DNA of 64,000 bases. Source: Nemertoderma westbladi (taxonomy: Eukaryota > Animalia > Xenacoelomorpha). The stretch lies in assembly GCA_032718475.1 (NCBI GenBank), contig JAUCBJ010001154.1, positions 1 through 64,000 on the forward strand, in the 5' to 3' direction. The notes below the pieces were generated by a model, which was not told the DNA's origin, did not search any database, and saw nothing but the letters and a program-made list of their open reading frames with translations. The position numbers were made by a program, and so were the translations under genes. Positions 1-28,787 of this stretch are shown here, piece by piece. Position 1 is the stretch's first letter. Every line of letters starts with the position of its first letter.

Positions 1-3000
1 AGTTCTACACTAGCTACTCTAATGCAACAAGGTGAGTCTGGTAAAGTTCAACACTAACTACTCTAATGCAACAAGGTGAGTCTGGTAAAGTTCAACCCTA
101 GCTACTCTAATGCAACAAGGTGAGTCTGGTAAAGTTCTACACTAGCTACTCTAATGCAACAAGGTGAGTCTGGTAAAGTTCTACCCTAGCTACTCTAATG
201 CAACAAGGTGAGTCTGATAAAGTTCTACACTAGCTACTCTAATGCAACAAGGTAAGTCTGGTAAAGTTCTACACTAGCTACTCTAATGCAACAAGGTGAG
301 TCTGGTAAAGTTCAACCCTAGCTACTCTAATGCAACAAGGTGAGTCTGGTAAAGTTCAACACTAGCTACTCTAATGCAACAAGGTGAGTCTGGTAAAGTT
401 CAACCCTAGCTACTCTAATGCAACAAGGTGAGTCTGATAAAGTTCTACACTAGCTACTCTAATGCAACAAGGTAAGTTTGGTAAAGTTCTACACTAGCTA
501 CTCTAATGCAACAAGGTGAGTCTGGTAAAGTTCAACCCTAGCTACTCTAATGCAACAAGGTGAGTCTGATAAAGTTCTACACTAGCTACTCTAATGCAAC
601 AAGGTAAGTTTGGTGAAGTTCAACCCTAGCTACTCTAATGCAACAAGGTGAGTCTGGTAAAGTTCAACACTAGCTACTCTAATGCAACAAGGTGAGTCTG
701 ATAAAGTTCTACACTAGCTACTCTAATGCAACAAGGTAAGTTTGGTAAAGTTCAACCCTAGCTACTCTAATGCAACAAGGTGAGTGTGGTAAAGTTCTAC
801 ACTAGCTACTCTAATGCAACAAGGTGAGTCTGATAAAGTTCTACACTAGCTACTCTAATGCAACAAGGTGAGTCTGGTAAAGTTCTACACTAGCTACTCT
901 AATGCAACAAGGTAAGTTTGGTAAAGTTCTACACTAGCTACTCTAATGCAACAAGGTGAGTCTGGTAAAGTTCGACCCTAGCTACTCTAATGCAACAAGG
1001 TGAGTCTGGTAAAGTTCAACCCTAGCTACTCTAATGCAACAAGGTGAGTCTGGTAAAGTTCTACACTAGCTACTCTAATGCAACAAGGTAAGTTTGGTAA
1101 AGTTCTACACTAGCTACTCTAATGCAACAAAGTGAGTCTGATAAAGTTCTACACTAGCTACTCTAATGCAACAAGGTAAGTCTGGTAAAGTTCTACACTA
1201 GCTACTCTAATGCAACAAGGTGAGTCTGATAAAGTTATACAATAGCTACTCTAATGCAACAAGGTGAGTCTGGTAAAGTTCTACACTAGCTACTCTAATG
1301 CAACAAGGTAAGTTTGGTAAAGTTCTACACTAGCTACTTTAATGCAACAAGGTGAGTCTGATAAAGTTCTACACTAGCTACTCTAATGCAACAAGGTGAG
1401 TCTGATAAAGTTCTACACTAGCTACTCTAATGCAACAAGGTGAGTCTGATAAAGTTATACAATAGCTACTCTAATGCAACAAGGTGAGTCTGGTAAAGTT
1501 CTACACTAGCTACTCTAATGCAACAAGGTAAGTTTGGTAAAGTTCTACACTAGCTACTCTAATGCAACAAGGTGAGTCTGATAAAGTTCAACACTAACTA
1601 CTCTAATGCAACAAGGTAAGTCTGGTAAAGTTCAACACTAGCTACTCTAATGCAACAAGGTAAGTTTGGTAAAGTTCTACACTAGCTACTCTAATGCAAC
1701 AAGGTAAGTCTGATAAAGTTATACAATAGCTACTCTAATGCAACAAGGTGAGTCTGGTAAAGTTCTACACTAGCTACTCTAATGCAACAAGGTAAGTTTG
1801 GTAAAGTTCTACACTAGCTACTCTAATGCAACAAGGTGAGTCTGATAAAGTTCAACACTAACTACTCTAATGCAACAAGGTGAGTCTGGTAAAGTTCAAC
1901 ACTAGCTACTCTAATGCAACAAGGTGAGTCTGGTAAAGTTCAACACTAGCTACTCTAATGCAACAAGGTGAGTCTGGTAAAGTTCAACCCTAGCTACTCT
2001 AATGCAACAAGGTGAGTCTGATAAAGTTCTACACTAGCTACTCTAATGCAACAAGGTAAGTCTGGTAAAGTTCTACACTAGCTACTCTAATGCAACAAGG
2101 TGAGTCTGGTAAAGTTCAACCCTAGCTACTCTAATGCAACAAGGTGAGTCTGATAAAGTTCTACACTAGCTACTCTAATGCAACAAGGTAAGTCTGGTGA
2201 AGTTCAACCCTAGCTACTCTAATGCAACAAGGTGAGTCTGGTAAAGTTCTACACTAGCTACTCTAATGCAACAAGGTAAGTTTGGTAAAGTTCTACACTA
2301 GCTACTCTAATGCAACAAGGTGAGTCTGATAAAGTTCTACACTAGCTACTCTAATGCAACAAGGTAAGTTTGGTGAAGTTCAACCCTAGCTACTCTAATG
2401 CAACAAGGTGAGTCTGATAAAGTTCTACACTAGCTACTCTAATGCAACAAGGTGAGTCTGGTAAAGTTCAACACTAGCTACTCTAATGCAACAAGGTGAG
2501 TCTGATAAAGTTCTACACTAGCTACTCTAATGCAACAAGGTAAGTCTGGTAAAGTTCAACCCTAGCTACTCTAATGCAACAAGGTGAGTGTGGTAAAGTT
2601 CTACACTAGCTACTCTAATGCAACAAGGTGAGTCTGATAAAGTTCTACACTAGCTACTCTAATGCAACAAGGTGAGTCTGGTAAAGTTCTACACTAGCTA
2701 CTCTAATGCAACAAGGTGAGTCTGATAAAGTTCAACACTAGCTACTCTAATGCAACAAGGTGAGTCTGGTAAAGTTCAACACTAGCTACTCTAATGCAAC
2801 AAGGTGAGTCTGGTAAAGTTCAACCCTAGCTACTCTAATGCAACAAGGTGAGTCTGATAAAGTTCTACACTAGCTACTCTAATGCAACAAGGTAAGTTTG
2901 GTGAAGTTCAACCCTAGCTACTCTAATGCAACAAGGTGAGTCTGGTAAAGTTCTACACTAGCTACTCTAATGCAACAAGGTAAGTTTGGTAAAGTTCTAC

Positions 3001-6000
3001 ACTAGCTACTCTAATGCAACAAGGTGAGTCTGATAAAGTTCTACACTAGCTACTCTAATGCAACAAGGTAAGTTTGGTGAAGTTCAACCCTAGCTACTCT
3101 AATGCAACAAGGTGAGTCTGATAAAGTTCTACACTAGCTACTCTAATGCAACAAGGTGAGTCTGGTAAAGTTCAACACTAGCTACTCTAATGCAACAAGG
3201 TGAGTCTGATAAAGTTCTACACTAGCTACTCTAATGCAACAAGGTAAGTTTGGTAAAGTTCAACCCTAGCTACTCTAATGCAACAAGGTGAGTGTGGTAA
3301 AGTTCTACACTAGCTACTCTAATGCAACAAGGTGAGTCTGATAAAGTTCTACACTAGCTACTCTAATGCAACAAGGTGAGTCTGGTAAAGTTCTACACTA
3401 GCTACTCTAATGCAACAAGGTGAGTCTGATAAAGTTCAACACTAACTACTCTAATGCAACAAGGTGAGTCTGGTAAAGTTCAACCCTAGCTACTCTAATG
3501 CAACAAGGTGAGTCTGGTAAAGTTCTACACTAGCTACTCTAATGCAACAAGGTGAGTCTGGTAAAGTTCAACCCTAGCTACTCTAATGCAACAAGGTGAG
3601 TCTGATAAAGTTCTACACTAGCTACTCTAATGCAACAAGGTAAGTTTGGTAAAGTTCTACACTAACTACTCTAATGCAACAAGGTGAGTCTGGTAAAGTT
3701 CAACCCTAGCTACTCTAATGCAACAAGGTGAGTCTGGTAAAGTTCAACACTAGCTACTCTAATGCAACAAGGTGAGTCTGGTAAAGTTCAACCCTAGCTA
3801 CTCTAATGCAACAAGGTGAGTCTGATAAAGTTCTACACTAGCTACTCTAATGCAACAAGGTAAGTTTGGTAAAGTTCTACACTAGCTACTCTAATGCAAC
3901 AAGGTGAGTCTGGTAAAGTTCAACCCTAGCTACTCTAATGCAACAAGGTGAGTCTGATAAAGTTCTACACTAGCTACTCTAATGCAACAAGGTAAGTTTG
4001 GTGAAGTTCAACCCTAGCTACTCTAATGCAACAAGGTGAGTCTGGTAAAGTTCAACACTAGCTACTCTAATGCAACAAGGTGAGTCTGATAAAGTTCTAC
4101 ACTAGCTACTCTAATGCAACAAGGTAAGTTTGGTAAAGTTCAACCCTAGCTACTCTAATGCAACAAGGTGAGTGTGGTAAAGTTCTACACTAGCTACTCT
4201 AATGCAACAAGGTGAGTCTGATAAAGTTCTACACTAGCTACTCTAATGCAACAAGGTGAGTCTGGTAAAGTTCTACACTAGCTACTCTAATGCAACAAGG
4301 TAAGTTTGGTAAAGTTCTACACTAGCTACTCTAATGCAACAAGGTGAGTCTGGTAAAGTTCGACCCTAGCTACTCTAATGCAACAAGGTGAGTCTGGTAA
4401 AGTTCAACCCTAGCTACTCTAATGCAACAAGGTGAGTCTGGTAAAGTTCTACACTAGCTACTCTAATGCAACAAGGTAAGTTTGGTAAAGTTCTACACTA
4501 GCTACTCTAATGCAACAAAGTGAGTCTGATAAAGTTCTACACTAGCTACTCTAATGCAACAAGGTAAGTCTGGTAAAGTTCTACACTAGCTACTCTAATG
4601 CAACAAGGTGAGTCTGATAAAGTTATACAATAGCTACTCTAATGCAACAAGGTGAGTCTGGTAAAGTTCTACACTAGCTACTCTAATGCAACAAGGTAAG
4701 TTTGGTAAAGTTCTACACTAGCTACTTTAATGCAACAAGGTGAGTCTGATAAAGTTCTACACTAGCTACTCTAATGCAACAAGGTGAGTCTGATAAAGTT
4801 CTACACTAGCTACTCTAATGCAACAAGGTGAGTCTGATAAAGTTATACAATAGCTACTCTAATGCAACAAGGTGAGTCTGGTAAAGTTCTACACTAGCTA
4901 CTCTAATGCAACAAGGTAAGTTTGGTAAAGTTCTACACTAGCTACTCTAATGCAACAAGGTGAGTCTGATAAAGTTCAACACTAACTACTCTAATGCAAC
5001 AAGGTAAGTCTGGTAAAGTTCAACACTAGCTACTCTAATGCAACAAGGTAAGTTTGGTAAAGTTCTACACTAGCTACTCTAATGCAACAAGGTAAGTCTG
5101 ATAAAGTTATACAATAGCTACTCTAATGCAACAAGGTGAGTCTGGTAAAGTTCTACACTAGCTACTCTAATGCAACAAGGTAAGTTTGGTAAAGTTCTAC
5201 ACTAGCTACTCTAATGCAACAAGGTGAGTCTGATAAAGTTCAACACTAACTACTCTAATGCAACAAGGTAAGTTTGGTAAAGTTCTACACTAGCTACTCT
5301 AATGCAACAAGGTGAGTCTGATAAAGTTCAACACTAACTACTCTAATGCAACAAGGTAAGTCTGGTAAAGTTCAACCCTAGCTACTCTAATGCAACAAGG
5401 TGAGTCTGGTAAAGTTCTACACTAGCTACTCTAATGCAACAAGGTAAGTCTGATAAAGTTATACAATAGCTACTCTAATGCAACAAGGTGAGTCTGGTAA
5501 AGTTCAACACTAGCTACTCTAATGCAACAAGGTAAGTCTGGTAAAGTTCTACACTAGCTACTCTAATGCAACAAGGTGAGTCTGATAAAGTTATACAATA
5601 GCTACTCTAATGCAACAAGGTGAGTCTGGTAAAGTTCTACACTAGCTACTCTAATGCAACAAGGTAAGTTTGGTAAAGTTCTACACTAGCTACTTTAATG
5701 CAACAAGGTGAGTCTGATAAAGTTCTACACTAGCTACTCTAATGCAACAAGGTGAGTCTGATAAAGTTCTACACTAGCTACTCTAATGCAACAAGGTGAG
5801 TCTGATAAAGTTATACAATAGCTACTCTAATGCAACAAGGTGAGTCTGGTAAAGTTCTACACTAGCTACTCTAATGCAACAAGGTAAGTTTGGTAAAGTT
5901 CTACACTAGCTACTCTAATGCAACAAGGTGAGTCTGATAAAGTTCAACACTAACTACTCTAATGCAACAAGGTAAGTCTGGTAAAGTTCAACACTAGCTA

Positions 6001-9000
6001 CTCTAATGCAACAAGGTAAGTTTGGTAAAGTTCTACACTAGCTACTTTAATGCAACAAGGTGATTCTGATAAAGTTCTACACTAGCTACTCTAATGCAAC
6101 AAGGTGAGTCTGATAAAGTTCTACACTAGCTACTCTAATGCAACAAGGTGAGTCTGATAAAGTTATACAATAGCTACTCTAATGCAACAAGGTGAGTCTG
6201 GTAAAGTTCTACACTAGCTACTCTAATGCAACAAGGTGAGTCTGATAAAGTTCAACACTAACTACTCTAATGCAACAAGGTAAGTCTGGTAAAGTTCTAC
6301 ACTAGCTACTCTAATGCAACAAGGTAAGTTTGGTAAAGTTCTACACTAACTACTCTAATGCAACAAGGTGAGTCTGGTAAAGTTCAACCCTAGCTACTCT
6401 AATGCAACAAGGTGAGTCTGATAAAGTTCTACACTAGCTACTCTAATGCAACAAGGTGAGTCTGATAAAGTTCTACACTAGCTACTCTAATGCAACAAGG
6501 TGAGTCTGATAAAGTTCAACACTAACTACTCTAATGCAACAAGGTGAGTCTGGTAAAGTTCAACCCTAGCTACTCTAATGCAACAAGGTGAGTCTGATAA
6601 AGTTCTACACTAGCTACTGTAATGCAACAAGGTGAGTCTGATAAAGTTCTACACTAGCTACTCTAATGCAACAAGGTGAGTCTGATAAAGTTCTACACTA
6701 GCTACTCTAATGCAACAAGGTGAGTCTGATAAAGTTCAACCCTAGCTACTCTAATGCAACAAGGTGAGTCTGGTAAAGTTCTACACTAGCTACTCTAATG
6801 CAACAAGGTGAGTCTGGTAAAGTTCAACGCTAGCTACTCTAATGCAACAAGGTGAGTCTGATAAAGTTCTACACTAGCTACTCTAATGCAACAAGGTGAG
6901 TCTGATAAAGTTCAACACTAACTACTCTAATGCAACAAGGTGAGTCTGGTAAAGTTCAACCCTAGCTACTCTAATGCAACAAGGTGAGTCTGGTAAAGTT
7001 CTACACTAGCTACTCTAATGCAACAAGGTGAGTCTGGTAAAGTTCAACCCTAGCTACTCTAATGCAACAAGGTGAGTCTGATAAAGTTCTACACTAGCTA
7101 CTCTAATGCAACAAGGTAAGTTTGGTAAAGTTCTACACTAACTACTCTAATGCAACAAGGTGAGTCTGGTAAAGTTCAACCCTAGCTACTCTAATGCAAC
7201 AAGGTGAGTCTGGTAAAGTTCAACACTAGCTACTCTAATGCAACAAGGTGAGTCTGGTAAAGTTCAACCCTAGCTACTCTAATGCAACAAGGTGAGTCTG
7301 ATAAAGTTCTACACTAGCTACTCTAATGCAACAAGGTAAGTTTGGTAAAGTTCTACACTAGCTACTCTAATGCAACAAGGTGAGTCTGGTAAAGTTCAAC
7401 CCTAGCTACTCTAATGCAACAAGGTGAGTCTGATAAAGTTCTACACTAGCTACTCTAATGCAACAAGGTAAGTTTGGTGAAGTTCAACCCTAGCTACTCT
7501 AATGCAACAAGGTAAGTTTGGTGAAGTTCAACCCTAGCTACTCTAATGCAACAAGGTGAGTCTGATAAAGTTCTACACTAGCTACTCTAATGCAACAAGG
7601 TGAGTCTGGTAAAGTTCAACACTAGCTACTCTAATGCAACAAGGTGAGTCTGATAAAGTTCTACACTAGCTACTCTAATGCAACAAGGTAAGTTTGGTAA
7701 AGTTCAACCCTAGCTACTCTAATGCAACAAGGTGAGTGTGGTAAAGTTCTACACTAGCTACTCTAATGCAACAAGGTGAGTCTGATAAAGTTCTACACTA
7801 GCTACTCTAATGCAACAAGGTGAGTCTGGTAAAGTTCTACACTAGCTACTCTAATGCAACAAGGTGAGTCTGATAAAGTTCAACACTAACTACTCTAATG
7901 CAACAAGGTGAGTCTGGTAAAGTTCAACCCTAGCTACTCTAATGCAACAAGGTGAGTCTGGTAAAGTTCTACACTAGCTACTCTAATGCAACAAGGTGAG
8001 TCTGGTAAAGTTCAACCCTAGCTACTCTAATGCAACAAGGTGAGTCTGATAAAGTTCTACACTAGCTACTCTAATGCAACAAGGTAAGTTTGGTAAAGTT
8101 CTACACTAACTACTCTAATGCAACAAGGTGAGTCTGGTAAAGTTCAACCCTAGCTACTCTAATGCAACAAGGTGAGTCTGGTAAAGTTCAACACTAGCTA
8201 CTCTAATGCAACAAGGTGAGTCTGGTAAAGTTCAACCCTAGCTACTCTAATGCAACAAGGTGAGTCTGATAAAGTTCTACACTAGCTACTCTAATGCAAC
8301 AAGGTAAGTTTGGTAAAGTTCTACACTAGCTACTCTAATGCAACAAGGTGAGTCTGGTAAAGTTCAACCCTAGCTACTCTAATGCAACAAGGTGAGTCTG
8401 ATAAAGTTCTACACTAGCTACTCTAATGCAACAAGGTAAGTTTGGTGAAGTTCAACCCTAGCTACTCTAATGCAACAAGGTGAGTCTGGTAAAGTTCAAC
8501 ACTAGCTACTCTAATGCAACAAGGTGAGTCTGATAAAGTTCTACACTAGCTACTCTAATGCAACAAGGTAAGTTTGGTAAAGTTCAACCCTAGCTACTCT
8601 AATGCAACAAGGTGAGTGTGGTAAAGTTCTACACTAGCTACTCTAATGCAACAAGGTGAGTCTGATAAAGTTCTACACTAGCTACTCTAATGCAACAAGG
8701 TGAGTCTGGTAAAGTTCTACACTAGCTACTCTAATGCAACAAGGTAAGTTTGGTAAAGTTCTACACTAGCTACTCTAATGCAACAAGGTGAGTCTGGTAA
8801 AGTTCAACCCTAGCTACTCTAATGCAACAAGGTGAGTCTGGTAAAGTTCAACCCTAGCTACTCTAATGCAACAAGGTGAGTCTGGTAAAGTTCTACACTA
8901 GCTACTCTAATGCAACAAGGTAAGTTTGGTAAAGTTCTACACTAGCTACTCTAATGCAACAAAGTGAGTCTGATAAAGTTCTACACTAGCTACTCTAATG

Positions 9001-12000
9001 CAACAAGGTAAGTCTGGTAAAGTTCTACACTAGCTACTCTAATGCAACAAGGTGAGTCTGATAAAGTTATACAATAGCTACTCTAATGCAACAAGGTGAG
9101 TCTGGTAAAGTTCTACACTAGCTACTCTAATGCAACAAGGTAAGTTTGGTAAAGTTCTACACTAGCTACTTTAATGCAACAAGGTGAGTCTGATAAAGTT
9201 CTACACTAGCTACTCTAATGCAACAAGGTGAGTCTGATAAAGTTCTACACTAGCTACTCTAATGCAACAAGGTGAGTCTGATAAAGTTATACAATAGCTA
9301 CTCTAATGCAACAAGGTGAGTCTGGTAAAGTTCTACACTAGCTACTCTAATGCAACAAGGTAAGTTTGGTAAAGTTCTACACTAGCTACTCTAATGCAAC
9401 AAGGTGAGTCTGATAAAGTTCAACACTAACTACTCTAATGCAACAAGGTAAGTCTGGTAAAGTTCAACACTAGCTACTCTAATGCAACAAGGTAAGTTTG
9501 GTAAAGTTCTACACTAGCTACTCTAATGCAACAAGGTAAGTCTGATAAAGTTATACAATAGCTACTCTAATGCAACAAGGTGAGTCTGGTAAAGTTCTAC
9601 ACTAGCTACTCTAATGCAACAAGGTAAGTTTGGTAAAGTTCTACACTAGCTACTCTAATGCAACAAGGTGAGTCTGATAAAGTTCAACACTAACTACTCT
9701 AATGCAACAAGGTAAGTTTGGTAAAGTTCTACACTAGCTACTCTAATGCAACAAGGTGAGTCTGATAAAGTTCAACACTAACTACTCTAATGCAACAAGG
9801 TAAGTCTGGTAAAGTTCAACCCTAGCTACTCTAATGCAACAAGGTGAGTCTGGTAAAGTTCTACACTAGCTACTCTAATGCAACAAGGTAAGTCTGATAA
9901 AGTTATACAATAGCTACTCTAATGCAACAAGGTGAGTCTGGTAAAGTTCAACACTAGCTACTCTAATGCAACAAGGTAAGTCTGGTAAAGTTCTACACTA
10001 GCTACTCTAATGCAACAAGGTGAGTCTGATAAAGTTATACAATAGCTACTCTAATGCAACAAGGTGAGTCTGGTAAAGTTCTACACTAGCTACTCTAATG
10101 CAACAAGGTAAGTTTGGTAAAGTTCTACACTAGCTACTTTAATGCAACAAGGTGAGTCTGATAAAGTTCTACACTAGCTACTCTAATGCAACAAGGTGAG
10201 TCTGATAAAGTTCTACACTAGCTACTCTAATGCAACAAGGTGAGTCTGATAAAGTTATACAATAGCTACTCTAATGCAACAAGGTGAGTCTGGTAAAGTT
10301 CTACACTAGCTACTCTAATGCAACAAGGTAAGTTTGGTAAAGTTCTACACTAGCTACTCTAATGCAACAAGGTGAGTCTGATAAAGTTCAACACTAACTA
10401 CTCTAATGCAACAAGGTAAGTCTGGTAAAGTTCAACACTAGCTACTCTAATGCAACAAGGTAAGTTTGGTAAAGTTCTACACTAGCTACTTTAATGCAAC
10501 AAGGTGATTCTGATAAAGTTCTACACTAGCTACTCTAATGCAACAAGGTGAGTCTGATAAAGTTCTACACTAGCTACTCTAATGCAACAAGGTGAGTCTG
10601 ATAAAGTTATACAATAGCTACTCTAATGCAACAAGGTGAGTCTGGTAAAGTTCTACACTAGCTACTCTAATGCAACAAGGTGAGTCTGATAAAGTTCAAC
10701 ACTAACTACTCTAATGCAACAAGGTAAGTCTGGTAAAGTTCTACACTAGCTACTCTAATGCAACAAGGTAAGTTTGGTAAAGTTCTACACTAGCTACTCT
10801 AATGCAACAAGGTGAGTCTGATAAAGTTCAACACTAACTACTCTAATGCAACAAGGTAAGTCTGGTAAAGTTCTACACTAGCTACTCTAATGCAACAAGG
10901 TAAGTTTGGTAAAGTTCTACACTAGCTACTTTAATGCAACAAGGTGAGTCTGATAAAGTTCTACACTAGCTACTCTAATGCAACAAGGTGAGTCTGATAA
11001 AGTTCTACACTAGCTACTCTAATGCAACAAGGTAAGTTTGGTAAAGTTCTACACTAGCTACTTTAATGCAACAAGGTGAGTCTGATAAAGTTCTACACTA
11101 ACTACTCTAATGCAACAAGGTAAGTCTGGTAAAGTTCTACACTAGCTACTGTAATGCAACAAGGTGAGTCTGATAAAGTTCTACACTAGCTACTCTAATG
11201 CAACAAGGTAAGTTTGGTAAAGTTCTACACTAGCTACTTTAATGCAACAAGGTGAGTCTGATAAAGTTCTACACTAGCTACTCTAATGCAACAAGGTGAG
11301 TCTGATAAAGTTCTACACTAGCTACTGTAATGCAACAAGGTGAGTCTGATAAAGTTCTACACTAGTTACTCTAATGCAACAAGGTAAGTTTGGTAAAGTT
11401 CTACACTAGCTACTTTAATGCAACAAGGTGAGTCTGATAAAGTTCTACACTAGCTACTCTAATGCAACAAGGTGAGTCTGATAAAGTTCTACACTAGCTA
11501 CTCTAATGCAACAAGGTGAGTCTGATAAAGTTCTACACTAGCTACTCTAATGCAACAAGGTAAGTTTGGTAAAGTTCTACACTAGCTACTTTAATGCAAC
11601 AAGGTGAGTCTGATAAAGTTCTACACTAGCTACTCTAATGCAACAAGGTGAGTCTGATAAAGTTCTACACTAGCTACTCTAATGCAACAAGGTAAGTTTG
11701 GTAAAGTTCTACACTAGCTACTTTAATGCAACAAGGTGAGTCTGATAAAGTTCTACACTAACTACTCTAATGCAACAAGGTAAGTCTGGTAAAGTTCTAC
11801 ACTAGCTACTGTAATGCAACAAGGTGAGTCTGATAAAGTTCTACACTAGCTACTCTAATGCAACAAGGTAAGTTTGGTAAAGTTCTACACTAGCTACTTT
11901 AATGCAACAAGGTGAGTCTGATAAAGTTCTACACTAGCTACTCTAATGCAACAAGGTGAGTCTGATAAAGTTCTACACTAGCTACTGTAATGCAACAAGG

Positions 12001-15000
12001 TGAGTCTGATAAAGTTCTACACTAGTTACTCTAATGCAACAAGGTAAGTTTGGTAAAGTTCTACACTAGCTACTTTAATGCAACAAGGTGAGTCTGATAA
12101 AGTTCTACACTAGCTACTCTAATGCAACAAGGTGAGTCTGATAAAGTTCTACACTAGCTACTGTAATGCAACAAGGTGAGTCTGATAAAGTTCTACACTA
12201 GCTACTCTAATGCAACAAGGTAAGTTTGGTAAAGTTCTACACTAGCTACTTTAATGCAACAAGGTGAGTCTGATAAAGTTCTACACTAGCTACTCTAATG
12301 CAACAAGGTGAGTCTGATAAAGTTCTACACTAGCTACTCTAATGCAACAAGGTGAGTCTGATAAAGTTATACAATAGCTACTCTAATGCAACAAGGTAAG
12401 TTTGGTAAAGTTCTACACTAGCTACTTTAATGCAACAAGGTGAGTCTGATAAAGTTCTACACTAGCTACTCTAATGCAACAAGGTGAGTCTGATAAAGTT
12501 CTACACTAGCTACTCTAATGCAACAAGGTGAGTCTGATAAAGTTATACAATAGCTACTCTAATGCAACAAGGTGAGTCTGGTAAAGTTCTACACTAGCTA
12601 CTCTAATGCAACAAGGTGAGTCTGATAAAGTTCAACACTAACTACTCTAATGCAACAAGGTAAGTCTGGTAAAGTTCTACACTAGCTACTCTAATGCAAC
12701 AAGGTAAGTTTGGTAAAGTTCTACACTAGCTACTCTAATGCAACAAGGTGAGTCTGATAAAGTTCAACACTAACTACTCTAATGCAACAAGGTAAGTCTG
12801 GTAAAGTTCTACACTAGCTACTCTAATGCAACAAGGTAAGTTTGGTAAAGTTCTACACTAGCTACTTTAATGCAACAAGGTGAGTCTGATAAAGTTCTAC
12901 ACTAGCTACTCTAATGCAACAAGGTGAGTCTGATAAAGTTCTACACTAGCTACTCTAATGCAACAAGGTAAGTTTGGTAAAGTTCTACACTAGCTACTTT
13001 AATGCAACAAGGTGAGTCTGATAAAGTTCTACACTAACTACTCTAATGCAACAAGGTAAGTCTGGTAAAGTTCTACACTAGCTACTGTAATGCAACAAGG
13101 TGAGTCTGATAAAGTTCTACACTAGCTACTCTAATGCAACAAGGTAAGTTTGGTAAAGTTCTACACTAGCTACTTTAATGCAACAAGGTGAGTCTGATAA
13201 AGTTCTACACTAGCTACTCTAATGCAACAAGGTGAGTCTGATAAAGTTCTACACTAGCTACTGTAATGCAACAAGGTGAGTCTGATAAAGTTCTACACTA
13301 GCTACTCTAATGCAACAAGGTAAGTTTGGTAAAGTTCTACACTAGCTACTCTAATGCAACAAGGTGAGTCTGGTAAAGTTCTACACTAGCTACTCTAATG
13401 CAACAAGGTGAGTCTGATAAAGTTCAACACTAACTACTCTAATGCAACAAGGTAAGTCTGGTAAAGTTCAACACTAGCTACTCTAATGCAACAAGGTAAG
13501 TTTGGTAAAGTTCTACACTAGCTACTTTAATGCAACAAGGTGAGTCTGATAAAGTTCTACACTAGCTACTCTAATGCAACAAGGTGAGTCTGATAAAGTT
13601 ATACACTAGCTACTCTAATGCAACAAGGTGAGTCTGGTAAAGTTCAACACTAGCTACTCTAAAGCAACAAGGTAAGTTTGGTAAAGTTCTACACTAGCTA
13701 CTTTAATGCAACAAGGTGAGTCTGATAAAGTTCTACACTAGCTACTCTAATGCAACAAGGTGAGTCTGATAAAGTTCTACACTAGCTACTCTAATGCAAC
13801 AAGGTAAGTTTGGTAAAGTTCTACACTAGCTACTTTAATGCAACAAGGTGAGTCTGATAAAGTTCTACACTAGCTACTCTAATGCAACAAGGTGAGTCTG
13901 ATAAAGTTCTACACTAGCTACTCTAATGCAACAAAGTGAGTCTGATAAAGTTCTATACTAGCTACTCTAATGCAACAAGGTGAGTCTGATAAAGTTATAC
14001 AATAGCTACTCTAATGCAACAAGGTGAGTCTGGTAAAGTTCTACACTAGCTACTTTAATGCAACAAGGTGAGTCTGATAAAGTTCTACACTAGCTACTCT
14101 AATGCAACAAGGTGAGTCTGATAAAGTTCAACACTAACTACTCTAATGCAACAAGGTAAGTCTGGTATAAAGTTCTACACTAGCTACTCTAATGCAACAA
14201 GGTAAGTTTGGTAAAGTTCTACACTAGCTACTTTAATGCAACAAGGTGAGTCTGATAAAGTTCTACACTAGCTACTCTAATGCAACAAGGTGAGTCTGAT
14301 AAAGTTATACAATAGCTACTCTAATGCAACAAGGTAAGTTTGGTAAAGTTCTACACTAGCTACTTTAATGCAACAAGGTGAGTCTGATAAAGTTCTACAC
14401 TAGCTACTCTAATGCAACAAGGTGAGTCTGATAAAGTTCTACACTAGCTACTCTAATGCAACAAGGTGAGTCTGGTAAAGTTCAACACTAGCTACTCTAA
14501 TGCAACAAGGTAAGTTTGGTAAAGTTCTACACTAGCTACTTTAATGCAACAAGGTGAGTCTGGTAAAGTTCAACACTAGCTACTCTAATGCAACAAGGTA
14601 AGTTTGGTAAAGTTCTACACTAGCTACTTTAATGCAACAAGGTGAGTCTGATAAAGTTCAACACTAACTACTCTAATGCAACAAGGTAAGTCTGGTATAA
14701 AGTTCTACACTAGCTACTCTAATGCAACAAGGTAAGTTTGGTAAAGTTCTACACTAGCTACTTTAATGCAACAAGGTGAGTCTGATAAAGTTCTACACTA
14801 GCTACTCTAATGCAACAAGGTAAGTTTGGTAAAGTTCTACACTAGCTACTTTAATGCAACAAGGTGAGTCTGATAAAGTTCTACACTAGCTACTCTAATG
14901 CAACAAGGTAAGTTTGGTAAAGTTCTACACTAGCTACTCTAATGCAACAAGGTGAGTCTGATAAAGTTCAACACTAACTACTCTAATGCAACAAGGTAAG

Positions 15001-17845
15001 TCTGGTATAAAGTTCTACACTAGCTACTCTAATGCAACAAGGTAAGTTTGGTAAAGTTCTACACTAGCTACTTTAATGCAACAAGGTGAGTCTGATAAAG
15101 TTCTACACTAGCTACTCTAATGCAACAAGGTGAGTCTGATAAAGTTCTACACTAGCTACTCTAATGCAACAAGGTGAGTCTGATAAAGTTCTATACTAGC
15201 TACTCTAATGCAACAAGGTGAGTCTGATAAAGTTATACAATAGCTACTCTAATGCAACAAGGTGAGTCTGGTAAAGTTCTACACTAGCTACTCTAATGCA
15301 ACAAGGTGAGTCTGATAAAGTTCAACACTAACTACTCTAATGCAACAAGGTGAGTCTGATAAAGTTCAACACTAACTACTCTAATGCAACAAGGTAAGTC
15401 TGGTTTAAAGTTCTACACTAGCTACTCTAATGCAACAAGGTAAGTTTGGTAAAGTTCTACACTAGCTACTTTAATGCAACAAGGTGAGTCTGATAAAGTT
15501 CTACACTAGCTACTCTAATGCAACAAGGTAAGTTTGGTAAAGTTCTACACTAGCTACTTTAATGCAACAAGGTGAGTCTGATAAAGTTCTACACTAGCTA
15601 CTCTAATGCAACAAGGTAAGTTTGGTAAAGTTCTACACTAGCTACTCTAATGCAACAAGGTGAGTCTGATAAAGTTCAACACTAACTACTCTAATGCAAC
15701 AAGGTAAGTCTGGTATAAAGTTCTACACTAGCTACTCTAATGCAACAAGGTAAGTTTGGTAAAGTTCTACACTAGCTACTTTAATGCAACAAGGTGAGTC
15801 TGATAAAGTTCTACACTAGCTACTCTAATGCAACAAGGTGAGTCTGATAAAGTTCTACACTAGCTACTCTAATGCAACAAGGTGAGTCTGATAAAGTTCT
15901 ATACTAGCTACTCTAATGCAACAAGGTGAGTCTGATAAAGTTATACAATAGCTACTCTAATGCAACAAGGTGAGTCTGGTAAAGTTCTACACTAGCTACT
16001 CTAATGCAACAAGGTGAGTCTGATAAAGTTCAACACTAACTACTCTAATGCAACAAGGTAAGTCTGGTATAAAGTTCTACACTAGCTACTCTAATGCAAC
16101 AAGGTAAGTTTGGTAAAGTTCTACACTAGCTACTCTAATGCAACAAGGTGAGTCTGATAAAGTTCAACACTAACTACTCTAATGCAACAAGGTAAGTCTG
16201 GTAAAGTTCTACACTAGCTACTCTAATGCAACAAGGTAAGTTTGGTAAAGTTCTACACTAGCTACTCTAATGCAACAAGGTAAGTTTGATAAAGTTCTAC
16301 ACTAGCTACTTTAATGCAACAAGGTGAGTCTGATAAAGTTCTACACTAGCTACTCTAATGCAACAAGGTGAGTCTGATAAAGTTCTACACTAGCTACTCT
16401 AATGCAACAAGGTAAGTTTGATAAAGTTCTACACTAGCTACTTTAATGCAACAAGGTGAGTCTGATAAAGTTCTACACTAGCTACTCTAATGCAACAAGG
16501 TGAGTCTGATAAAGTTCTACACTAGCTACTCTAATGCAACAAGGTAAGTTTGGTAAAGTTCTACACTAGCTACTTTAATGCAACAAGGTGAGTCTGATAA
16601 AGTTCTACACTAACTACTCTAATGCAACAAGGTAAGTCTGGTAAAGTTCTACACTAGCTACTGTAATGCAACAAGGTGAGTCTGATAAAGTTCTACACTA
16701 GCTACTCTAATGCAACAAGGTAAGTTTGATAAAGTTCTACACTAGCTACTTTAATGCAACAAGGTGAGTCTGATAAAGTTCTACACTAGCTACTCTAATG
16801 CAACAAGGTGAGTCTGATAAAGTTCTACACTAGCTACTCTAATGCAACAAGGTAAGTTTGGTAAAGTTCTACACTAGCTACTTTAATGCAACAAGGTGAG
16901 TCTGATAAAGTTCTACACTAACTACTCTAATGCAACAAGGTAAGTCTGGTAAAGTTCTACACTAGCTACTGTAATGCAACAAGGTGAGTCTGATAAAGTT
17001 CTACACTAGCTACTCTAATGCAACAAGGTGAGTCTGATAAAGTTCTACACTAGCTACTCTAATGCAACAAGGTGAGTCTGATAAAGTTCTACACTAGCTA
17101 CTCTAATGCAACAAGGTAAGTTTGGTAAAGTTCTACACTAGCTACTTTAATGCAACAAGGTGAGTCTGATAAAGTTCTACACTAGCTACTCTAATGCAAC
17201 AAGGTGAGTCTGATAAAGTTCTACACTAGCTACTGTAATGCAACAAGGTGAGTCTGATAAAGTTCTACACTAGCTACTCTAATGCAACAAGGTAAGTTTG
17301 GTAAAGTTCTACACTAGCTACTTTAATGCAACAAGGTGAGTCTGATAAAGTTCTACACTAGCTACTCTAATGCAACAAGGTGCGTCTGATAAAGTTCTAC
17401 ACTAGCTACTGTAATGCAACAAGGTGAGTCTGATAAAGTTCTACACTAGCTACTCTAATGCAACAAGGTAAGTTTGGTAAAGATCTACACTAGCTACTTT
17501 AATGCAACAAGGTGAGTCTGATAAAGTTCTACACTAGCTACTCTAATGCAACAAGGTGAGTCTGATAAAGTTCTACACTAGCTACTCTAATGCAACAAGG
17601 TGAGTCTGATAAAGTTATACAATAGCTACTCTAATGCAACAAGGTGAGTCTGGTAAAGTTCTACACTAGCTACTCTAATGCAACAAGGTAAGTTTGGTAA
17701 AGTTCTACACTAGCTACTTTAATGCAACAAGGTGAGTCTGATAAAGTTCAACACTAACTACTCTAATGCAACAAGGTAAGTCTGGTAAAGTTCAACACTA
17801 GCTACTCTAGTACAACAAGTACAGGGTGGTAAAGTGTAACACTAT
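1..17845 (+). repeat. 44-bp tandem satellite (~405 copies, begins upstream of the window); the unit is the 3' end of the iGluR M2 pore-loop exon plus its 5' splice site
   Basis: Consensus AGTTCTACACTAGCTACTCTAATGCAACAAG|GT(G/A)AGT(C/T)TG(G/A)TAA with period 44. ACA CTA GCT ACT CTA ATG CAA CAA G reads TLATLMQQG and is followed by GTGAGT or GTAAGT. The last unit is degenerate at ~17790-17845. Confidence 0.97.
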
Positions 17846-18988: not shown

Positions 18989-21358
18989 GCTTTGTGATAC
19001 TCCACCAGTGCGGGTGCTCTGAGTCGCTTTGTGATACTCCAACAGTGCGGCTGCTCTGAGTCGCTTTGCGACACTCCACCAGTGCGGGTGCTCTGAGTCG
19101 CTTTGTGATACTCCACCAGTGCGGGTGCTCTGAGTCGCTTTGTGATACTCCAACAGTGCGGGTGCTCTGAGTCGCTTTGTGATACTCCACCAGTGCGGGT
19201 GCTCTGAGTCGCTTTGTGACACTCCAACAGTGCGGCTGCTCTGAGTCGCTTTGTGACACTCCACCAGTGCGGTTGCTCTGAGTCGCTTTGTGATACTCCA
19301 CCAGTGCGGGTGCTCTGAGTCGCTTTGTGATACTCCACCAGTGCGGGTGCTCTGAGTCGCTTTGTGATACTCCACCAGTGTGGGTGCTCTGAGTCGCTTT
19401 GTGATACTCCACCAGTGCGGGTGCTCTGAGGCGCTTTGTGATACTCCACCAGTGAGGGTGCTCTGAGTCGCTTTGTGATACTCCACCAGTGCGGGTGCTC
19501 TGAGTCGCTTTGTGATACTCCACCAGTGCGGGTGCTCTGAGTCGCTTTGTGATACTCCAACAGTGCGATTGCTCTGAGTCGCTTTGTGATACTCTACCAG
19601 TGCGGGTGATCTGAGTCGCTTTGTGATACTCCAACAGTGCGGGTGCTCTGAGTCGCTTTGTGATACTCCACCAGTGCGGGTGCTCTGAGTCGCTTTGTGA
19701 TACTCCACCAGTGCGGGTGCTCTGAGTTGCTTTGTGATACGCCAACAGTGCGGGTGCTCTGAGTCGCTATATGATACTCCAACAGTGCGGGTGCTCTGAG
19801 TCGCTTTGTGATACTCCAACAGTGCGGGTGCTCTGAGTCGCTTTGTGATACTCCACCAGTGCGGGTGCTCTGAGTCGCTTTGTGATACTCCACCAGTGCG
19901 GGTGCTCTGAGTCGCTTTGTGATACTCCACCAGTGCGGGTGCTCTGAGTCGCTTTGTGATACTCCACCAGTGCGGGTGCTCTGAGTCGCTTTGTGATACT
20001 CCACCAGTGCGGGTGCTCTGAGTCGCCTTGTGATACTCCACCAGTGCGGGTGCTCTGAGTCGCTTTGTGATACTCCACCACTGCGGGTGCTCTGAGTCGC
20101 TTTGTGATACTCCACCAGTGCGGGTGCTCTGAGTCGCTTTGTGATACTCTATCAGTGCGGGTGCTCTGAGTCGCTTTGTGACACTCCAACAGTGCGGCTG
20201 CTCTGAGTCGCTTTGTGACACTCCACCAGTGCGGTTGCTCTGAGTCTCTTTGTGATACTCCACCAGTGCGGGTGCTCTGAGTCGCTTTGTGATACTCCAC
20301 CAGTGCGGGTGCTCTGAGTCGCTTTGTGATACTCCACCAGTGTGGGTGCTCTGAGTCGCTTTGTGATACTCCACCAGTGCGGGTGCTCTGAGGCGCTTTG
20401 TGATACTCCACCAGTGAGGGTGCTCTGAGTCGCTTTGTGATACTCCTCCAGTGCGGGTGCTCTGAGTCGCTTTGTGATACTCCACCAGTGCGGGTGCTCT
20501 GAGTCGCTTTGTGATACTCCAACAGTGCGGTTGCTCTGAGTCGCTTTGTGATACTCCACCAGTGCGGGTGATCTGAGTCGCTTTGTGATACTCCAACAGT
20601 GCGGGTGCTCTGAGTCGCTTTGTGATACTCCACCAGTGCGGGTGCTCTGAGTTGCTTTGTGATACTCCACCAGTGCGGGTGCTCTGAGTTGCTTTGTGAT
20701 ACGCCAACAGTGCGGGTGTTCTGAGTCGCTGTATGATACTCCAACAGTGCGGGTGCTCTGAGTCGCTTTGTGATACTCCAACAGTGCGGGTGCTCTGAGT
20801 CGCTTTGTGATACTCCACCAGTGCGGGTGCTCTGAGTCGCTTTGTGATACTCCACCAGTGCGGGTGCTCTGAGTGGCTTTGTGATACTCCACCAGTGCGG
20901 GTGCTCTGAGTCGCTTTGTGATACTCCACCAGTGCGGGTGCTCTGAGTCGCTTTGTGATACTCCACAAGTGCGGGTGCTCTGAGTCGCTTTGTGATACTC
21001 CACCAGTGCGGGTGCTCTGAGTCGCTTTGTGATACTCCACCACTGCGGGTGCTCTGAGTCGCTTTGTGATACTCCACCAGTGCGGGTGCTCTGAGTCGCT
21101 TTGTGATACTCTATCAGTGCGCGTGCTCTGAGTCGCTTTGTGATACTCCACCAGTGCGGGTGCTCTGAGTCGCTTTGTGATACTCCAACAGTGCGGGTGC
21201 TCTGAGTCGCTTTGTGATACTCCAACATTGCGGGTGCTCTGAGTCGCTTTGTGATACTCCACCAGTGCGGGTGCTCTGAGTCGCTTTGTGATACTCCACC
21301 AGTGCGGGTGCTCTGAGTCGCTTTGTGATACTCCACCAGTGAGGGTGCTCTGAGTCGC
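18989..21358. repeat. 37-bp GC-rich tandem minisatellite (~64 copies) with a 26-unit (962 bp) higher-order period, intronic
   Basis: Unit GCTTTGTGATACTCCACCAGTGCGGGTGCTCTGAGTC, with GAGTC at 19021 and 19058. The rare variant GAGGCG recurs at 19428 and 20390 (962 = 26x37). Confidence 0.97.
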
Positions 21359-22304
21359 GTTGTCATACAGTAAAATATGTTACTCAATCGGGACGGCAGA
21401 AAATATGCTGCTCTCTTCATCTTTATACTTTATGACGTTTGGGTCTTTGAGCGAAATTTAGTAAATTTATGAGCTATTTATGAATAAAAATTCATAGTGG
21501 ATGTTTGTATTAAATGTTTGTTTGTTATGTCATGTCATGTTATGTTTGTTTGTATTTTCATTTTTAAAGAGTTAAAATTATAAAATATATAAAGAGTCCT
21601 CCTCTGCGTCAACCTTTAAACGTGCACTATATTTATATGCACTGGACCACTCCAAAATGTTTCAATATCCTACCAAATTTATCCCATTATACTTGGGTCC
21701 TGTCTATCTATTTATTATTTTGTGTGGTACGGTAGAAACCTTAACCCATGGTGGTAAAATAAACGTCCTTATTTCAATATATAAAGAGTTAACTATACTT
21801 TGTTGCTTCTAAGCGTGCTGCGATACGTCGAAAATGGAAGAGGAATCTGGGGAATCGTTGCGATCTGAACAACACAAATTTGGATTTTCAAATAGTATAT
21901 GGTTCGCTCTTTCTGCGGCCTTGAGACAAAGTATGTTGAAAACTCTGCACAACCTTTATCTCTATGCCGCATAACTGCATATGGTAGAGTGGCTTTAGTT
22001 CTCAATCACAGATAATATTTGTTACTTATTGTATCAGCATGCAGATCCTTGCATTACTGTATGCGTGGCGGCAATGACCTCTTAGACCTACATGACCAAC
22101 TAACTGCACCACCAAATCTTACGCGTACACCCACTTCACACGCACATCAACCTTGTTTATTCATGTCTTTTAACCCGTATAATTCTGTAGAGACCCTAAA
22201 TGTAAGCACATGGGTGAAGTTGAGCATGTTGGTTTGGTTTCGTGTCGGTGTCTTATATATATCGGAATAATAATTTATCATATTTTTCCTGTTTAGTTTG
22301 TACC

Positions 22305-22672: not shown

Positions 22673-22708
<36 letters not shown>

Positions 22709-22730: not shown

Positions 22731-24349
22731 ATAGTTTCTAGTCATATAATATACACCACACCATCACGGGTAAAAATGTAGTGTCTCTTTCTGATGACAC
22801 GCCAACTTATATTTTTTCTACAAATTTTTTTGTCATATTGCTTAAAATAGTGAAATGTTCAACTCAACGTCTTGGTTACAACGCACCCAGTATTCTAGAT
22901 TTTGCGTGCGAAGATTTTCAGGCCTTTTTTAAAGTGTTATCCTACCTGTTATTCGTCACATTAGGATTAGGGATTCCGCTTCTATCACTAAATGACACCA
23001 TATTACCGGTCATGGTGTTGGTGTGTATGTAAAGAAAGCTATTGTGATTATTGCTTGGTTTGTTAAGAAGCAATTGTTTAGAATTTTGTTCCAGCAATAA
23101 AAAATCATAACTCTGAAATAAATTAAAAATGCAACTAAATCAAAAAATATAATTAGGTAAATGTAATCGGTTTTGTGTTCCAAGGAATTACATAGAGGCT
23201 AATCTTAATTGATTTTTATCCATCGAACTCAAATTGTATTAAATTGAAATTGGTGGATTTTATTTTCTGCCGTTGCCGAGTTGTGTTCTGCACGTTTCCT
23301 CTATTGTTTAGACTAAATAATTATTTATTCCGCTCTTTATTACACACCTTATTCCACCTATAATTGTAATTTATACATATTTATTCTGAAACGCCCCCTC
23401 TATTGAATCGCCTTGTGTTATTTCAATGAAAAAAAATAAGAAATGTTCTGTAAACTCAGCTCGCTCAAACCACACATTTAACGCAATTGACACCTTTTTT
23501 TTCCAATATTTTTAAACGGTAAATATTTTTGAGTCTTAATGACAAATGGATGGGTATATTGGATATTGGATCTTTATAATGTATTGTATATAGGCGACAA
23601 CTTTATTATTATAAATTTTGCAGCGGATCAATTTGCGATTTGCAATGGCTTATTGAAGCAGCATCTATTACAGAAAATTTATTGGTGGTATTGGTATTGG
23701 TGCCTTTAACAGATCTATGCAATAGGTATTTACTATGTATTAGATTTAGTCCAATGCTAACATGTTATTGAAACCTGACTGGAATTATATGTTTTGTGTT
23801 ATTTTAGTAGGTAATACGATTGTCATCAATAATCATACGATTGATGGGCATTTTAAAAGAGCGAGAAACGTTTTTAACAGTTCAGTCATTGCTTCCATGT
23901 GTTTTGTAAAAATTGCTGAATATTTACAAAGTTTACATGCGTTCGACTGTAGTTAAAACGTTAATGTGATAAATCATAGACACAGTAAGTAATCAAGTTT
24001 TCAGTATTATGATTAACGATTAACGCGGCATACATATTGTACATGATCGGCCCCATCTATATGGTGCAATACTGACGAACCAGAAACAAAGCCATCTCAA
24101 ACCACTCGGTGATCCAAACACTTTAAGAGTTCGGTGAAGTTCTCATGGCCAATGTCCTCGATTTACCGGCAAAGGATAGTTATTGGCCGGCTACCGTGCC
24201 AGTTCAAGCTGAGACAGACTGATCTCCCCGGCGGTATGAGTGTCCAGTCCATTGATCATGGTATCAAATCAGTGAGTGACAGCCCAGGACAGCCATAGAG
24301 CAGCACATATCTGTACAAACCAGAAGGTCGCCAAAGTGCTTTGCGAGGC

Positions 24350-24367
24350 GGGGGGGGGGGGGGGGGG
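24350..24367 (+). repeat. Poly-G homopolymer (18 G)
   Basis: Directly visible G run about 230 bp upstream of the exon acceptor at 24600. Confidence 0.9.
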
Positions 24368-24600: not shown

Positions 24601-25096
24601 GTTGCGACTATCACCCTAAAACGTTATCTTCTCGGATTCTCGGCGCCTTTTGGTGGTTGTTCACAATGATCGTTATATCCACTTACACGGCCAATCTAGC
24701 GGCGTTCCTTACGTCCAGTCGTATGGAGACCCCGATAGACTCCCTGGAGGACCTAGTCGGGCAGCGAGTAATCACTTACGGTACAGTCAAGGATTCCCCC
24801 ATACACAACGCCTTCCAAGAACAAAAACAGATGAACCCAATATACGAGAGCATCGCCATATACTTTGAGGACAACCCAGAAGTCTTAGTTGAAACTGCCG
24901 CCGAGGGTTATAAGAAAGTGTTAAATTCCACGACCAATAAGAACGAGAAGTACGCGTTCATGTGGGATGAAGCGATCCACGATTATAAAATGACGCAGAA
25001 CTGTAACTATAAGACAGTCGGGAAACCTTTCCTACTCAAAGGATACGGTATAGCTATGCAAAAAGGCTCGCCATATCGGGAAAATATGTCGTGGGC
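24601..25096 (+). CDS. Ionotropic glutamate receptor (non-NMDA, AMPA/kainate/delta-type) internal exon: M2-M3 linker, M3 gating helix, most of the S2 ligand-binding lobe
   Basis: Acceptor tttgtgtttcag| at 24600 and donor |gtaagt at 25097. Translation (G)[37 protein letters not shown]...YGTVKDS...YAFMWD...[13 protein letters not shown] contains the hallmark (S/T)YTANLAAF motif. The phase-1 start fits an upstream exon ending MQQG. Confidence 0.96.
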
Positions 25097-26344: not shown

Positions 26345-26493
26345 AATATTGAAACTACAAGAACGAAATAAATTGAAAGAATTAAAGAAGACGTGGTTTA
26401 GTGGTGAGAGTGGAGGGAGTTCAAATATTTGTTCGAATTGGGTTCAAGATGATCACCATGCTACAAAAGGCATTGAACTGGTAAATGTTGCAG
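26345..26493 (+). CDS. iGluR exon: end of S2 and pre-M4 linker
   Basis: Acceptor tcttctttag| at 26344 and donor |gtaagc at 26494. Phase-2 join GC+A gives Ala, then ILKLQERNKLKELKKTWF...C...GIELVNVAG, which matches the iGluR pattern AILxLQExGxLxxLKxKWW...L.L.NVAG. Confidence 0.93.
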
Positions 26494-27594
26494 GTAAGCG
26501 ACCCTCTTAGGTTTAATTACCAATCCAGGTTTATTGGTCTAAACGCGTCCACATTGTAGCAATGGACTAGTCAACGTAAATTATTGTAAAATTATATCAA
26601 ATATTATCGTACATATATTTTAATATATTTTATATACCTGCAGTACATGGTATGGTGTTCATAATAATGTGTTTGTTTTTCATTTTGTAGTGAAATTTTT
26701 ACACTAAAACGTAGTTGATAGTTTTTGCTACCCGCCTCTGATAACCAAAATCCTACCAAGGAATTTGGTGTATATGTTTTTACATACATATCAGCCTGTT
26801 AAGTAGTGAATTTATTGAATACACTACATTGTTTTTACACCTACAATAAATATGCGTGAAATTCAAACGTGTTTTTGTGTAAACAAATTTATTAGAAAGG
26901 CATTTCCTAAAGGAAATGCAACCACGAAGCTAAGGAAAATTAAACACTCTTTGACTAATCACTTCATTGCTTTACCAAGTTAAGAGGCATATGCCTTAAA
27001 ACTCTTATTACCATGGCAACCGGAGTTTTCTAGAACTGCTGAGGTTTACATTAAGATCCGACTTGTGGTTCCAGGTAACACATACTTCAATTCAGTTTCA
27101 TTGAGTATTTAATGAGCAAAACTAAGGCTTTAATTGTTAAAACGTCTGTTTGTAGTGGTTGTCATGGAAACTGAAAAATAGAACATTCAAATTCGGACAC
27201 AGAATATGTGATATAGTGAGGGTATGTTTTGGTCCCAAGTCATAACACCTTAACCTTAGGATTCAAATTAACATTTTATAAATTTTAACATCTGTTTAAC
27301 CCGGTTGCCAAGGTAACTGGATTTCTCTTTAACCTCAATCAGCTCTGTTATAGACTTTATAGTTGAGTTGATAAACAAATTTACTAAATATGCGCAAAGA
27401 AAAATCGGCAAGAAAAGCAAATGTTTTAATTTTATAAGTAAATCTTTGAAATATTTTTTCAAACCTAGTAATAAATTGCAATAATTTCTCCCGATTTTGA
27501 AGTATATTCGAGCGAAAAAGTAATAATTTAAAAATAAAATATTTTTCTTTATTTTAATAATTTCTTTATTTTTCTTTACTTTAAATTGATTTTA

Positions 27595-28082
27595 ATTTCT
27601 TTATTTTACAGGTGTATTTTTCTTTATTTTAAAGGTGTATAGGTTTGATATAGCACAAATAAACATATTTACTTTACACATTATATTACTCACTGTACTG
27701 GTGCTTTTATACAAATATAGTTCAGTACAAATAGAACAATTTTGTTACCGGTAACTTTAAGATTTATGAACAGAGTTGACATGGGTTCACCAACCAAACT
27801 CTTCAGTCTGCTACCCAAGCACCTGCGCCGTCATCCAGCCCCAGTAGCCGCCACGAACGTCGCCCCCCTCTAAGGCACAAACCCACAGCGCGCACCAACG
27901 CGATGGACAGACGGGCCCTAACCGGTGGTATATAGAAGGTGTATACAAAAGGTGTATAGGTGTATTTTTCTTTATTTTACAGGTGTATTTTTCTTTATTT
28001 TACAGGTATATTTTACTCTATTTTACAGGTGTATTTTACTTTATTTTACGGGTGTATTTACTTTATTTTACAGGTGTATTTT
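27595..28082 (+). repeat. Tandem 22-23 bp duplications of the M4-exon 3' splice site, split by a ~300-bp unique insert
   Basis: Unit GTGTATTTT(T/A)CTTTATTTTACAG. AG ends at 27611, 27982, 28005, 28028 and 28073; copies ending at ~27634 (AAG) and 28051 (CGG) are mutated. Confidence 0.88.
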
Positions 28083-28167
28083 ACATACTTATACTTGGAA
28101 CTGTGTTGGCGTTTTGTACCGCAGTTGTTGAAATAGTTTGGTATCAGAGAATTCGTGGATCTAACGA
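28074..28167 (+). CDS. iGluR exon encoding the M4 transmembrane helix
   Basis: Acceptor ctttattttacag| at 28073. The phase-1 join gives NVAG-VFYILILGTVLAFCTAVVEIVWYQRIRGSN, matching AMPA/kainate NVAGVFYIL...E. Probable donor GA|gttagt at 28168; read-through would stop at 28181-28183. Confidence 0.9.
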
Positions 28168-28647: not shown

Positions 28648-28787
28648 TAACTCGCAGAACATGACCCGAGACACATCAACGTTGCCGCAACCAAATACCG
28701 TTAGAGCTAGTCGATACGACGAGCGGGTCTTAATGCCTCGCCGCACAAACCCTGAAGGGAGTTCCTTCATATCAAAGGATCCAAGTG
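28648..28787 (+). CDS. Probable iGluR cytoplasmic C-terminal exon
   Basis: Acceptor ttctttattttatag| at 28647. The phase-2 join GA+T gives Asp and continues open as NSQNMTRDTSTLPQPNTVRASRYDERVLMPRRTNPEGSSFISKDPS(G). It is GC-richer than its flanks and ends at G|gttagt (28788), or at an in-frame TAG at 28790-28792. No homology support, since C-tails are unconserved. Confidence 0.68.

Follow-up and report, generated by a model that had tools for sequence, protein, structure and literature searches.

A pore-exon junction satellite of at least 405 units and a candidate arginine-bearing second pore exon in a likely delta-type glutamate receptor gene of Nemertoderma westbladi

The window analyzed here, by which we mean the whole stretch of 64,000 nucleotides at positions 1 to 64,000 of contig JAUCBJ010001154.1 (forward strand; GenBank assembly GCA_032718475.1) from the xenacoelomorph Nemertoderma westbladi, holds a downstream part of an ionotropic glutamate receptor (iGluR) gene, preceded by a long satellite whose unit resembles the end of a pore-loop exon together with its 5' splice site. 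We call the presumed source exon, upstream of the window, exon A, and name the exons within the window B to F. The features on which the argument rests are as follows:

1..17844, + strand: 44-bp satellite of 405 units, each with 25 nt matching the end of exon A and 19 nt of intron start including a donor
21814..21930, + strand: exon B, a candidate second pore-loop exon of 117 nt, phase 1-1; AAG acceptor preceded by a pyrimidine tract, GTATGT donor
24601..25096, + strand: exon C, encoding the M2-M3 linker, M3 and most of S2
26345..26493, + strand: exon D, encoding the end of S2
28074..28167, + strand: exon E, encoding M4 and the start of the tail, with a GTTAGT donor
28648..28787, + strand: exon F (inferred), encoding the C-terminal tail in phase with exon E, with a GTTAGT donor or a stop one codon later

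Tandem Repeats Finder returned a period of 44 with 404.7 copies and 93% matches over positions 1-17819, and tiling resolved the array into 405 units, with 398 steps of 44 bp and 6 of 46 bp. The array is cut by the left edge of the window, making 17.8 kb and 405 copies minima, and the roughly 400-fold repeat described in a sequence-only reading of this DNA is therefore confirmed as a lower bound. The first unit has its exon part at 7-31, while the final unit is decayed and ends at about 17844, the last intact donor following position 17775. Units lie on average 4.2% from the consensus and fall into 41 variants arranged in nested blocks, and 323 of the 405 translate as TLATLMQQ. The same reading had credited each unit with an intact 5' splice site, and this holds almost throughout: GT is retained in 404 of 405 units, and AAG followed by GT(A/G)AGT, a perfect donor, is present in 397 (266 GTGAGT, 131 GTAAGT), the commonest variant within the donor (G/A at +3) being one that preserves the consensus. 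Satellite donors match eight of nine consensus positions, as against six to eight for the other donors of the gene. A search of metagenome contigs, a weak test, gave no exact match to the unit, and only one of 88 candidates there was a related locus, a distant 45% match (L001) that lacks the satellite unit.

A profile was built from 125 distinct M2 segments of fetched proteins, arginine-bearing insect ones among them, and the unit was scored on it with the GT required in register. Its score of 22.9 was reached by none of 20,000 shuffles, the best of which scored 13.9, and places the satellite peptide near the family median (22.9 vs 21.6). The unit copies the end of an iGluR pore exon together with its donor, and the claimed likeness to the iGluR pore loop is upheld. 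The units run head to tail, each joining the exon end to the adjoining intron start, and the array sits upstream of the M3 exon, in phase 1, in the correct intron and on the correct strand. Because the unit combines a pore-exon end and donor with the right intron and phase, the upstream exon is its likely source, and the satellite very probably derives from an exon of this same gene. The proposal that an upstream exon was amplified is accordingly likely on the grounds of intron, phase and pore match, though the exon itself lies outside the window. The residue at the Q/R position of the pore is not altered by the satellite, and a divergence of only 4% among units, together with the family-median score of their peptide, suggests that the array grew out of a then canonical exon A.

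Downstream of the satellite, the exon previously proposed at 24601 proved to be real: the best solved-structure matches of exon C are GluK3/GluK2 (E ~1e-32), with AMPA and delta receptors also matching, and its phase 1 is the same as that of the satellite donor. It had also been taken for the next exon after the satellite, which no longer stands, since exon B intervenes at 21814-21930. Exons D and E were located by tblastn with fetched proteins, and exons C to F together encode 292 residues free of stops; a frame as long was opened by one of 14 comparable intronic acceptors.

Exon B is a homologous pore exon with an open frame, splice sites (the acceptor being AAG) and a compatible phase. At the Q/R position it encodes R (AGA), and the filter glycine is replaced by S; it ends FGFSNSIWFALSAALRQ, and has its donor at the same codon position as the satellite donor. 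Within 4,365 nt of unique intron sequence it is the best M2-plus-GT site, with a score of 34.7 that none of 200 shuffles reached and a runner-up at -8.9, and it matches the family profile with an E value of 2.6e-5. Joined to exon C it would read R-Q-S, as opposed to the Q-Q-G of the satellite, with R at the first filter position (compare protein P0040). Its GC content is 43.6%, with flanks at 29.5% and 37%. The tail shares 12 of 25 nt with the exon part of the satellite and differs at four of five fourfold third positions, and the head scores 23.5, within the family range (median 27.3). In a neutral-decay simulation that starts from the exon B sequence and models no indels, acceptor, donor, frame and family-like head all survived in only 7 of 20,000 runs at 0.5 changes per site. 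Exon B looks old and looks to be under selection. A weak search with its protein as query yielded five candidates, none at E up to 10, and no editing-type hairpin was found near it among the 25 longest inverted repeats.

Whether exon B is used in some transcripts we judge to be an even call. Its inclusion would put R-Q-S beside the M3 linker, whether exon B replaced exon A or followed it as a cassette. The two could be mutually exclusive if exon A begins in phase 1 downstream of M1; if exon A includes M1, exon B would be a cassette, in which case the first filter would lose its glycine and B would supply the helix next to M3. The exon of vertebrate GluD2 that corresponds to exon A includes M1. 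With exon B lying in the intron, the pore loop in cDNA need not be TLATLMQQG-like in every transcript. Two further ideas about this exon were set aside: a decayed M1 before it, suggested by eye, had a score that 2 of 24 intron windows and 2 of 40 shuffles equaled and so lacked significance, and an origin by fusion through a cross-intron duplication, raised by the 12 of 23 nt that its start shares with that of exon C, found no convincing support in gapped tests, the acceptor likeness being reached by 151 of 5,000 stretches of intron and by as many as 493 of 5,000 shuffles, with exon starts and donors weaker and the two introns sharing nothing.

The satellite poses an apparent problem for splicing, and the sequence-only reading had presented the choice among hundreds of near-identical strong donors as a puzzle. 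The donors are indeed there in their hundreds, but a human precedent in F7 already offers an answer, and the type of repeat is known. An in-frame stop follows soon after the donor in all 403 units tested (before the next donor in 397, just past it in 6), and as a stop lies after every later donor, only the first could yield a full protein. Transcripts with a premature stop are subject to nonsense-mediated decay. The first donor would win, as in human F7, and transcripts cut at later donors would meet a stop and be destroyed by that pathway. Arguing by analogy, we consider it probable that the satellite is neutral and that the first donor is used, and the array is likely tolerated because this is the only donor used. 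Recursive splicing at the AG-GT of the unit was also considered, but the unit has no pyrimidine tract.

The precedents are close in kind. In the available text of PMC1557585, intron 7 of human F7 carries five to nine copies of a 37-bp repeat with identical donors, of which only the most upstream is used, and F7, LMNB2 and PDGF are all described as spliced at the authentic donor only. In F7, IFI6, CBS, LMNB2 and PDGF (PMC1557585, available text), as here, each unit comprises an exon end and donor repeated into the intron; unlike those cases, the Nemertoderma array has at least 405 copies over 17.8 kb, each unit containing 25 coding nt and a stronger donor, and its first-donor use is predicted. 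The accessible portion of PMC3087553 describes 'mirages' in amphioxus Adh3 and the globins BflGb6 and BflGb9, in which donor or acceptor borders are repeated in tandem without apparent consequence for splicing; edge units escape homogenization there, as they do here. Like the amphioxus mirages, the window gene has both donor and acceptor repeat types, but whereas the globin case involves three to six units, here there are hundreds, and up to three arrays lie at the splice sites of one gene. The satellite is therefore a known kind of structure, a junction-spanning repeat or mirage, at extreme size, and nature here offers a test of first-donor choice in the face of 400 strong decoys spread over 18 kb.

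The class of receptor to which these exons belong bears on what a second pore exon might mean. Among 140 matches the nearest protein is a 'delta-1-like' receptor of the acoel Convolutriloba (58%), and the best single-domain match among the top 150 representatives reaches 51%; neither set contains a protein of this gene from the same species. Five short peptides from the window were absent from the supplement of PMC10861852 (1 file) and from the supplements of PMC13520880 other than file 13. In a midpoint-rooted tree of 48 rows, made from fetched proteins of our own choosing, the closest partners of the window gene are two Convolutriloba proteins (100/99); these three lie within a set of six acoel rows (98/91), which hemichordate and echinoderm receptors adjoin (96/85); the window gene falls outside the AMPA and kainate groups, and its link to vertebrate GluD is weak (77/83). 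The Acanthaster row carries our own label 'GluD', its source name being 'kainate 2-like'. The available text of PMC10861852 assigns xenacoelomorph, hemichordate and echinoderm receptors to the delta family and reports one acoel member to be GABA-gated. Tree position and that family assignment together indicate that the window gene is likely a delta-type glutamate receptor; the sequence-only reading had aligned its pore loop with that of AMPA/kainate receptors, but the gene groups with acoel delta-like receptors apart from both clades. At the window junction the intron lies directly after the QQG filter, in phase 1. With respect to acoel DioGluD and starfish AcaGluD (PMC10861852, in the part available), the window gene has its place among receptors of that kind from acoels, hemichordates and echinoderms; it is 55-58% identical to the nearest protein, and the S1 half of its binding domain lies outside the window.

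Two sets of gene models make the use of exon B plausible, namely the inserts of ambulacrarian orthologues and the R/Q exon pairs of insects. Orthologue isoforms of hemichordates and echinoderms carry inserts exactly after QQ, at the same intron, most of them 12 residues long. Such inserts are present in two of five isoforms in Ptychodera, five of six in Antedon, four of five in Anneissia and five of six in Apostichopus (9-20 residues), in one of eight in urchins and one Glandiceps gene, and in none of 14 in starfish; all of these data are gene models (P0257, P0258, P0154, P0260-P0264, P0157, P0267-P0269, P0159, P0274-P0276, P0279, P0007). The post-QQ insert likely represents a conserved cassette exon in the pore, on which we found no report in the literature. 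A Ptychodera isoform, P0255, is one glycine shorter at the filter junction, suggesting tandem acceptors 3 nt apart. Of the 281 fetched proteins, 38 have two pore segments; in 37 of these, all insect kainate-type models (among P0158-P0238), the R copy comes before the Q copy. The shrimp model P0184 has two Q copies, and P0079 and P0236 have the R form alone. The insect models likewise appear to have two pore exons per gene, with R and Q at the first filter position, but what is duplicated there takes in both M1 and M2 and in most cases retains the filter glycine, whereas here only the loop and M2 are involved and S replaces G; insect kainate-type and delta-like genes are separate lineages, so the two arrangements are likely independent. 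We found no publication on the insect exon pairs.

Arginine in the pore filter is also known from vertebrate GluA2, GluK1 and GluK2, where it arises by editing and abolishes Ca2+ sensitivity and rectification (PMC8257547), and from Hofstenia, where an AMPA receptor with a genomically encoded arginine at the second filter position (Q2) lacks rectification and Ca2+ sensitivity (PMC13520880). In the available text of PMC8257547 editing, not splicing, is named for the human pore, and that of PMC13520880 states that splicing in these species is still to be studied. In the window gene the arginine would come by exon choice rather than by RNA editing or a separate gene. We found no report of splice-selected iGluR pore exons, in a literature search of titles and abstract openings from which subscription journals were largely absent.

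Taken together, we are moderately confident that a junction-spanning satellite is tolerated through first-donor use in the intron of a delta-type receptor gene that also carries an arginine-bearing pore exon, likely an alternative one. More tentatively, and at somewhat less than an even chance, this delta-type and possibly GABA-gated receptor switches its Q/R site by splicing in exon B across an intron with 400 decoy donors; exon B would then place an arginine-bearing helix beside M3, either replacing exon A or pushing the helix of A into the cytoplasmic loop. Several observations weigh against the first of these accounts. On the side of the satellite, IFI6/6-16 (25 pseudo-sites) and intron 13 of CBS (15-20) each use two extra donors, and the only decoys that competed were those matching the consensus perfectly (PMC1557585, available text), while the satellite donors, at eight of nine positions, equal or exceed the gene's other donors; and copy number is five to nine in F7 and up to 25 in other human cases but at least 405 here. 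The idea that the donor array is a regulatory device, diverting part of the transcripts to decay, binding U1 snRNP or tilting the choice between A and B, has in its favor the presence of 397 strong donors, the consensus-preserving nature of the commonest donor variant and the stop after every later donor. We nonetheless regard a regulatory role as improbable: other invariant positions are equally conserved in what is a young, homogenized array, similar arrays occur both at other junctions and away from junctions in the same 64 kb, and the published cases show little effect in their available text (PMC1557585, PMC3087553). It is very improbable that we are dealing with a dispersed satellite, or with an artifact of assembly, that happens to look like the pore exon. 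None of the 20,000 shuffles reached the score of the unit, it stands in the right intron, strand and phase, its 41 variants form nested blocks that end in a decayed unit, and, more weakly, metagenome contigs gave no exact match.

The remaining points concern exon B, which might be a dead or dying duplicate that is never spliced, leaving a gene that makes a Q-Q-G pore only beside the satellite as described. We think this unlikely. In its favor, AAG acceptors are rare; the filter glycine is lost, and R-Q-S occurs in none of 170 distinct M2 segments (RQG in 15, QQG in 126); the tail scores 11.2, near the family 5th percentile of 11.9; no similar exon appears in eight isoform sequences of two distant acoels; and the age estimate is based on eight codons. 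At 0.1 changes per site, moreover, exon B still looked intact in 3,277 of 20,000 simulated runs, which makes a recent death possible. Against such a death, the open frame, the donor at the homologous base, the phase, the exon-like GC and the family-typical head all persist despite near-saturated third positions, and where the helix has changed, the new residues are small or hydrophobic. The converse arrangement, in which exon B is the working pore exon, exon A is dead or rarely used and the receptor always bears arginine, is improbable, about as much so as a regulatory array. Exon B is the only complete pore exon visible in the window and the one nearest to exon C, and the Hofstenia receptor (available text of PMC13520880) shows that a genomic pore arginine, there at Q2, occurs in an acoel AMPA receptor; but the satellite peptide sits at the family median with units differing by only 4%, and the closest relatives read QQG.

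Exon B is the more useful result, the satellite alone being an extreme example of a known oddity. If it is spliced in, exon choice would let an early-branching bilaterian tune the filter of a delta receptor for calcium and polyamines, unlike vertebrates, which edit the RNA, and unlike Hofstenia, which has a separate AMPA gene bearing the arginine. Together with the 12-residue ambulacrarian cassette, this intron would be a recurrent splice switch of the delta-receptor ion filter.

The origin of the satellite may be read in part from its ends. ACACTA starts the exon part of every unit and also ends the array (17839-17844), and because the last unit ends on this hexamer we propose that the first duplication arose by slippage at a 6-nt match spaced 44 bp apart. 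In the one haplotype analyzed, stretches of 1,986 and 1,604 nt recur without a difference 4,444 and 3,388 nt away (101 and 77 units), which points to later block duplication; this would have enlarged the array, with growth likely by slippage and unequal exchange. Three further arrays lie in the window:

18989..21368, no strand assigned: 37-bp minisatellite of 64 copies, in the same intron as the satellite, with no link to an exon border seen
27567..28084, + strand: 23-bp repeats across the exon E acceptor, in clusters at 27567-27640 and 27958-28084
28788..64000, + strand: 28/29-bp satellite of about 1,226 copies, more than 35 kb long and open at the right edge

Splice-site arrays and the 37-bp array together point to a genome prone to such growth. 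The minus strand of the 37-bp minisatellite holds open frames, an expected outcome when the unit contains no stop. The 23-bp repeats offer extra AG sites before 27612, 27635, 27960, 27983, 28006 and 28029; use of the acceptor before 28029 or 27960 would keep the frame and lengthen the protein in front of M4 by 15 or 38 residues, most of them hydrophobic, and the others would give a frame shift or a stop. The 28/29-bp satellite begins at the first base 3' of the inferred exon F and contains 1,147 GTTAGT donor hexamers, each unit opening with the hexamer that serves as the exon E donor, and it may be either a larger donor array or a 3' untranslated region array starting right at the stop codon. 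A likeness between the intron starts of exons E and F was rejected, 738 of 5,000 comparisons being as high.

Among minor features, an inverted repeat at 25358-25467, in the intron after exon C, has 27-nt arms that are 96% complementary and 56 nt apart, and is possibly a small transposon relic. Duplications of 24 bp and 14 bp lie at 25178-25275, some 80-180 nt past the exon C donor, and a TATG microsatellite (22674-22707) and a long G run (24348-24368) are also present.

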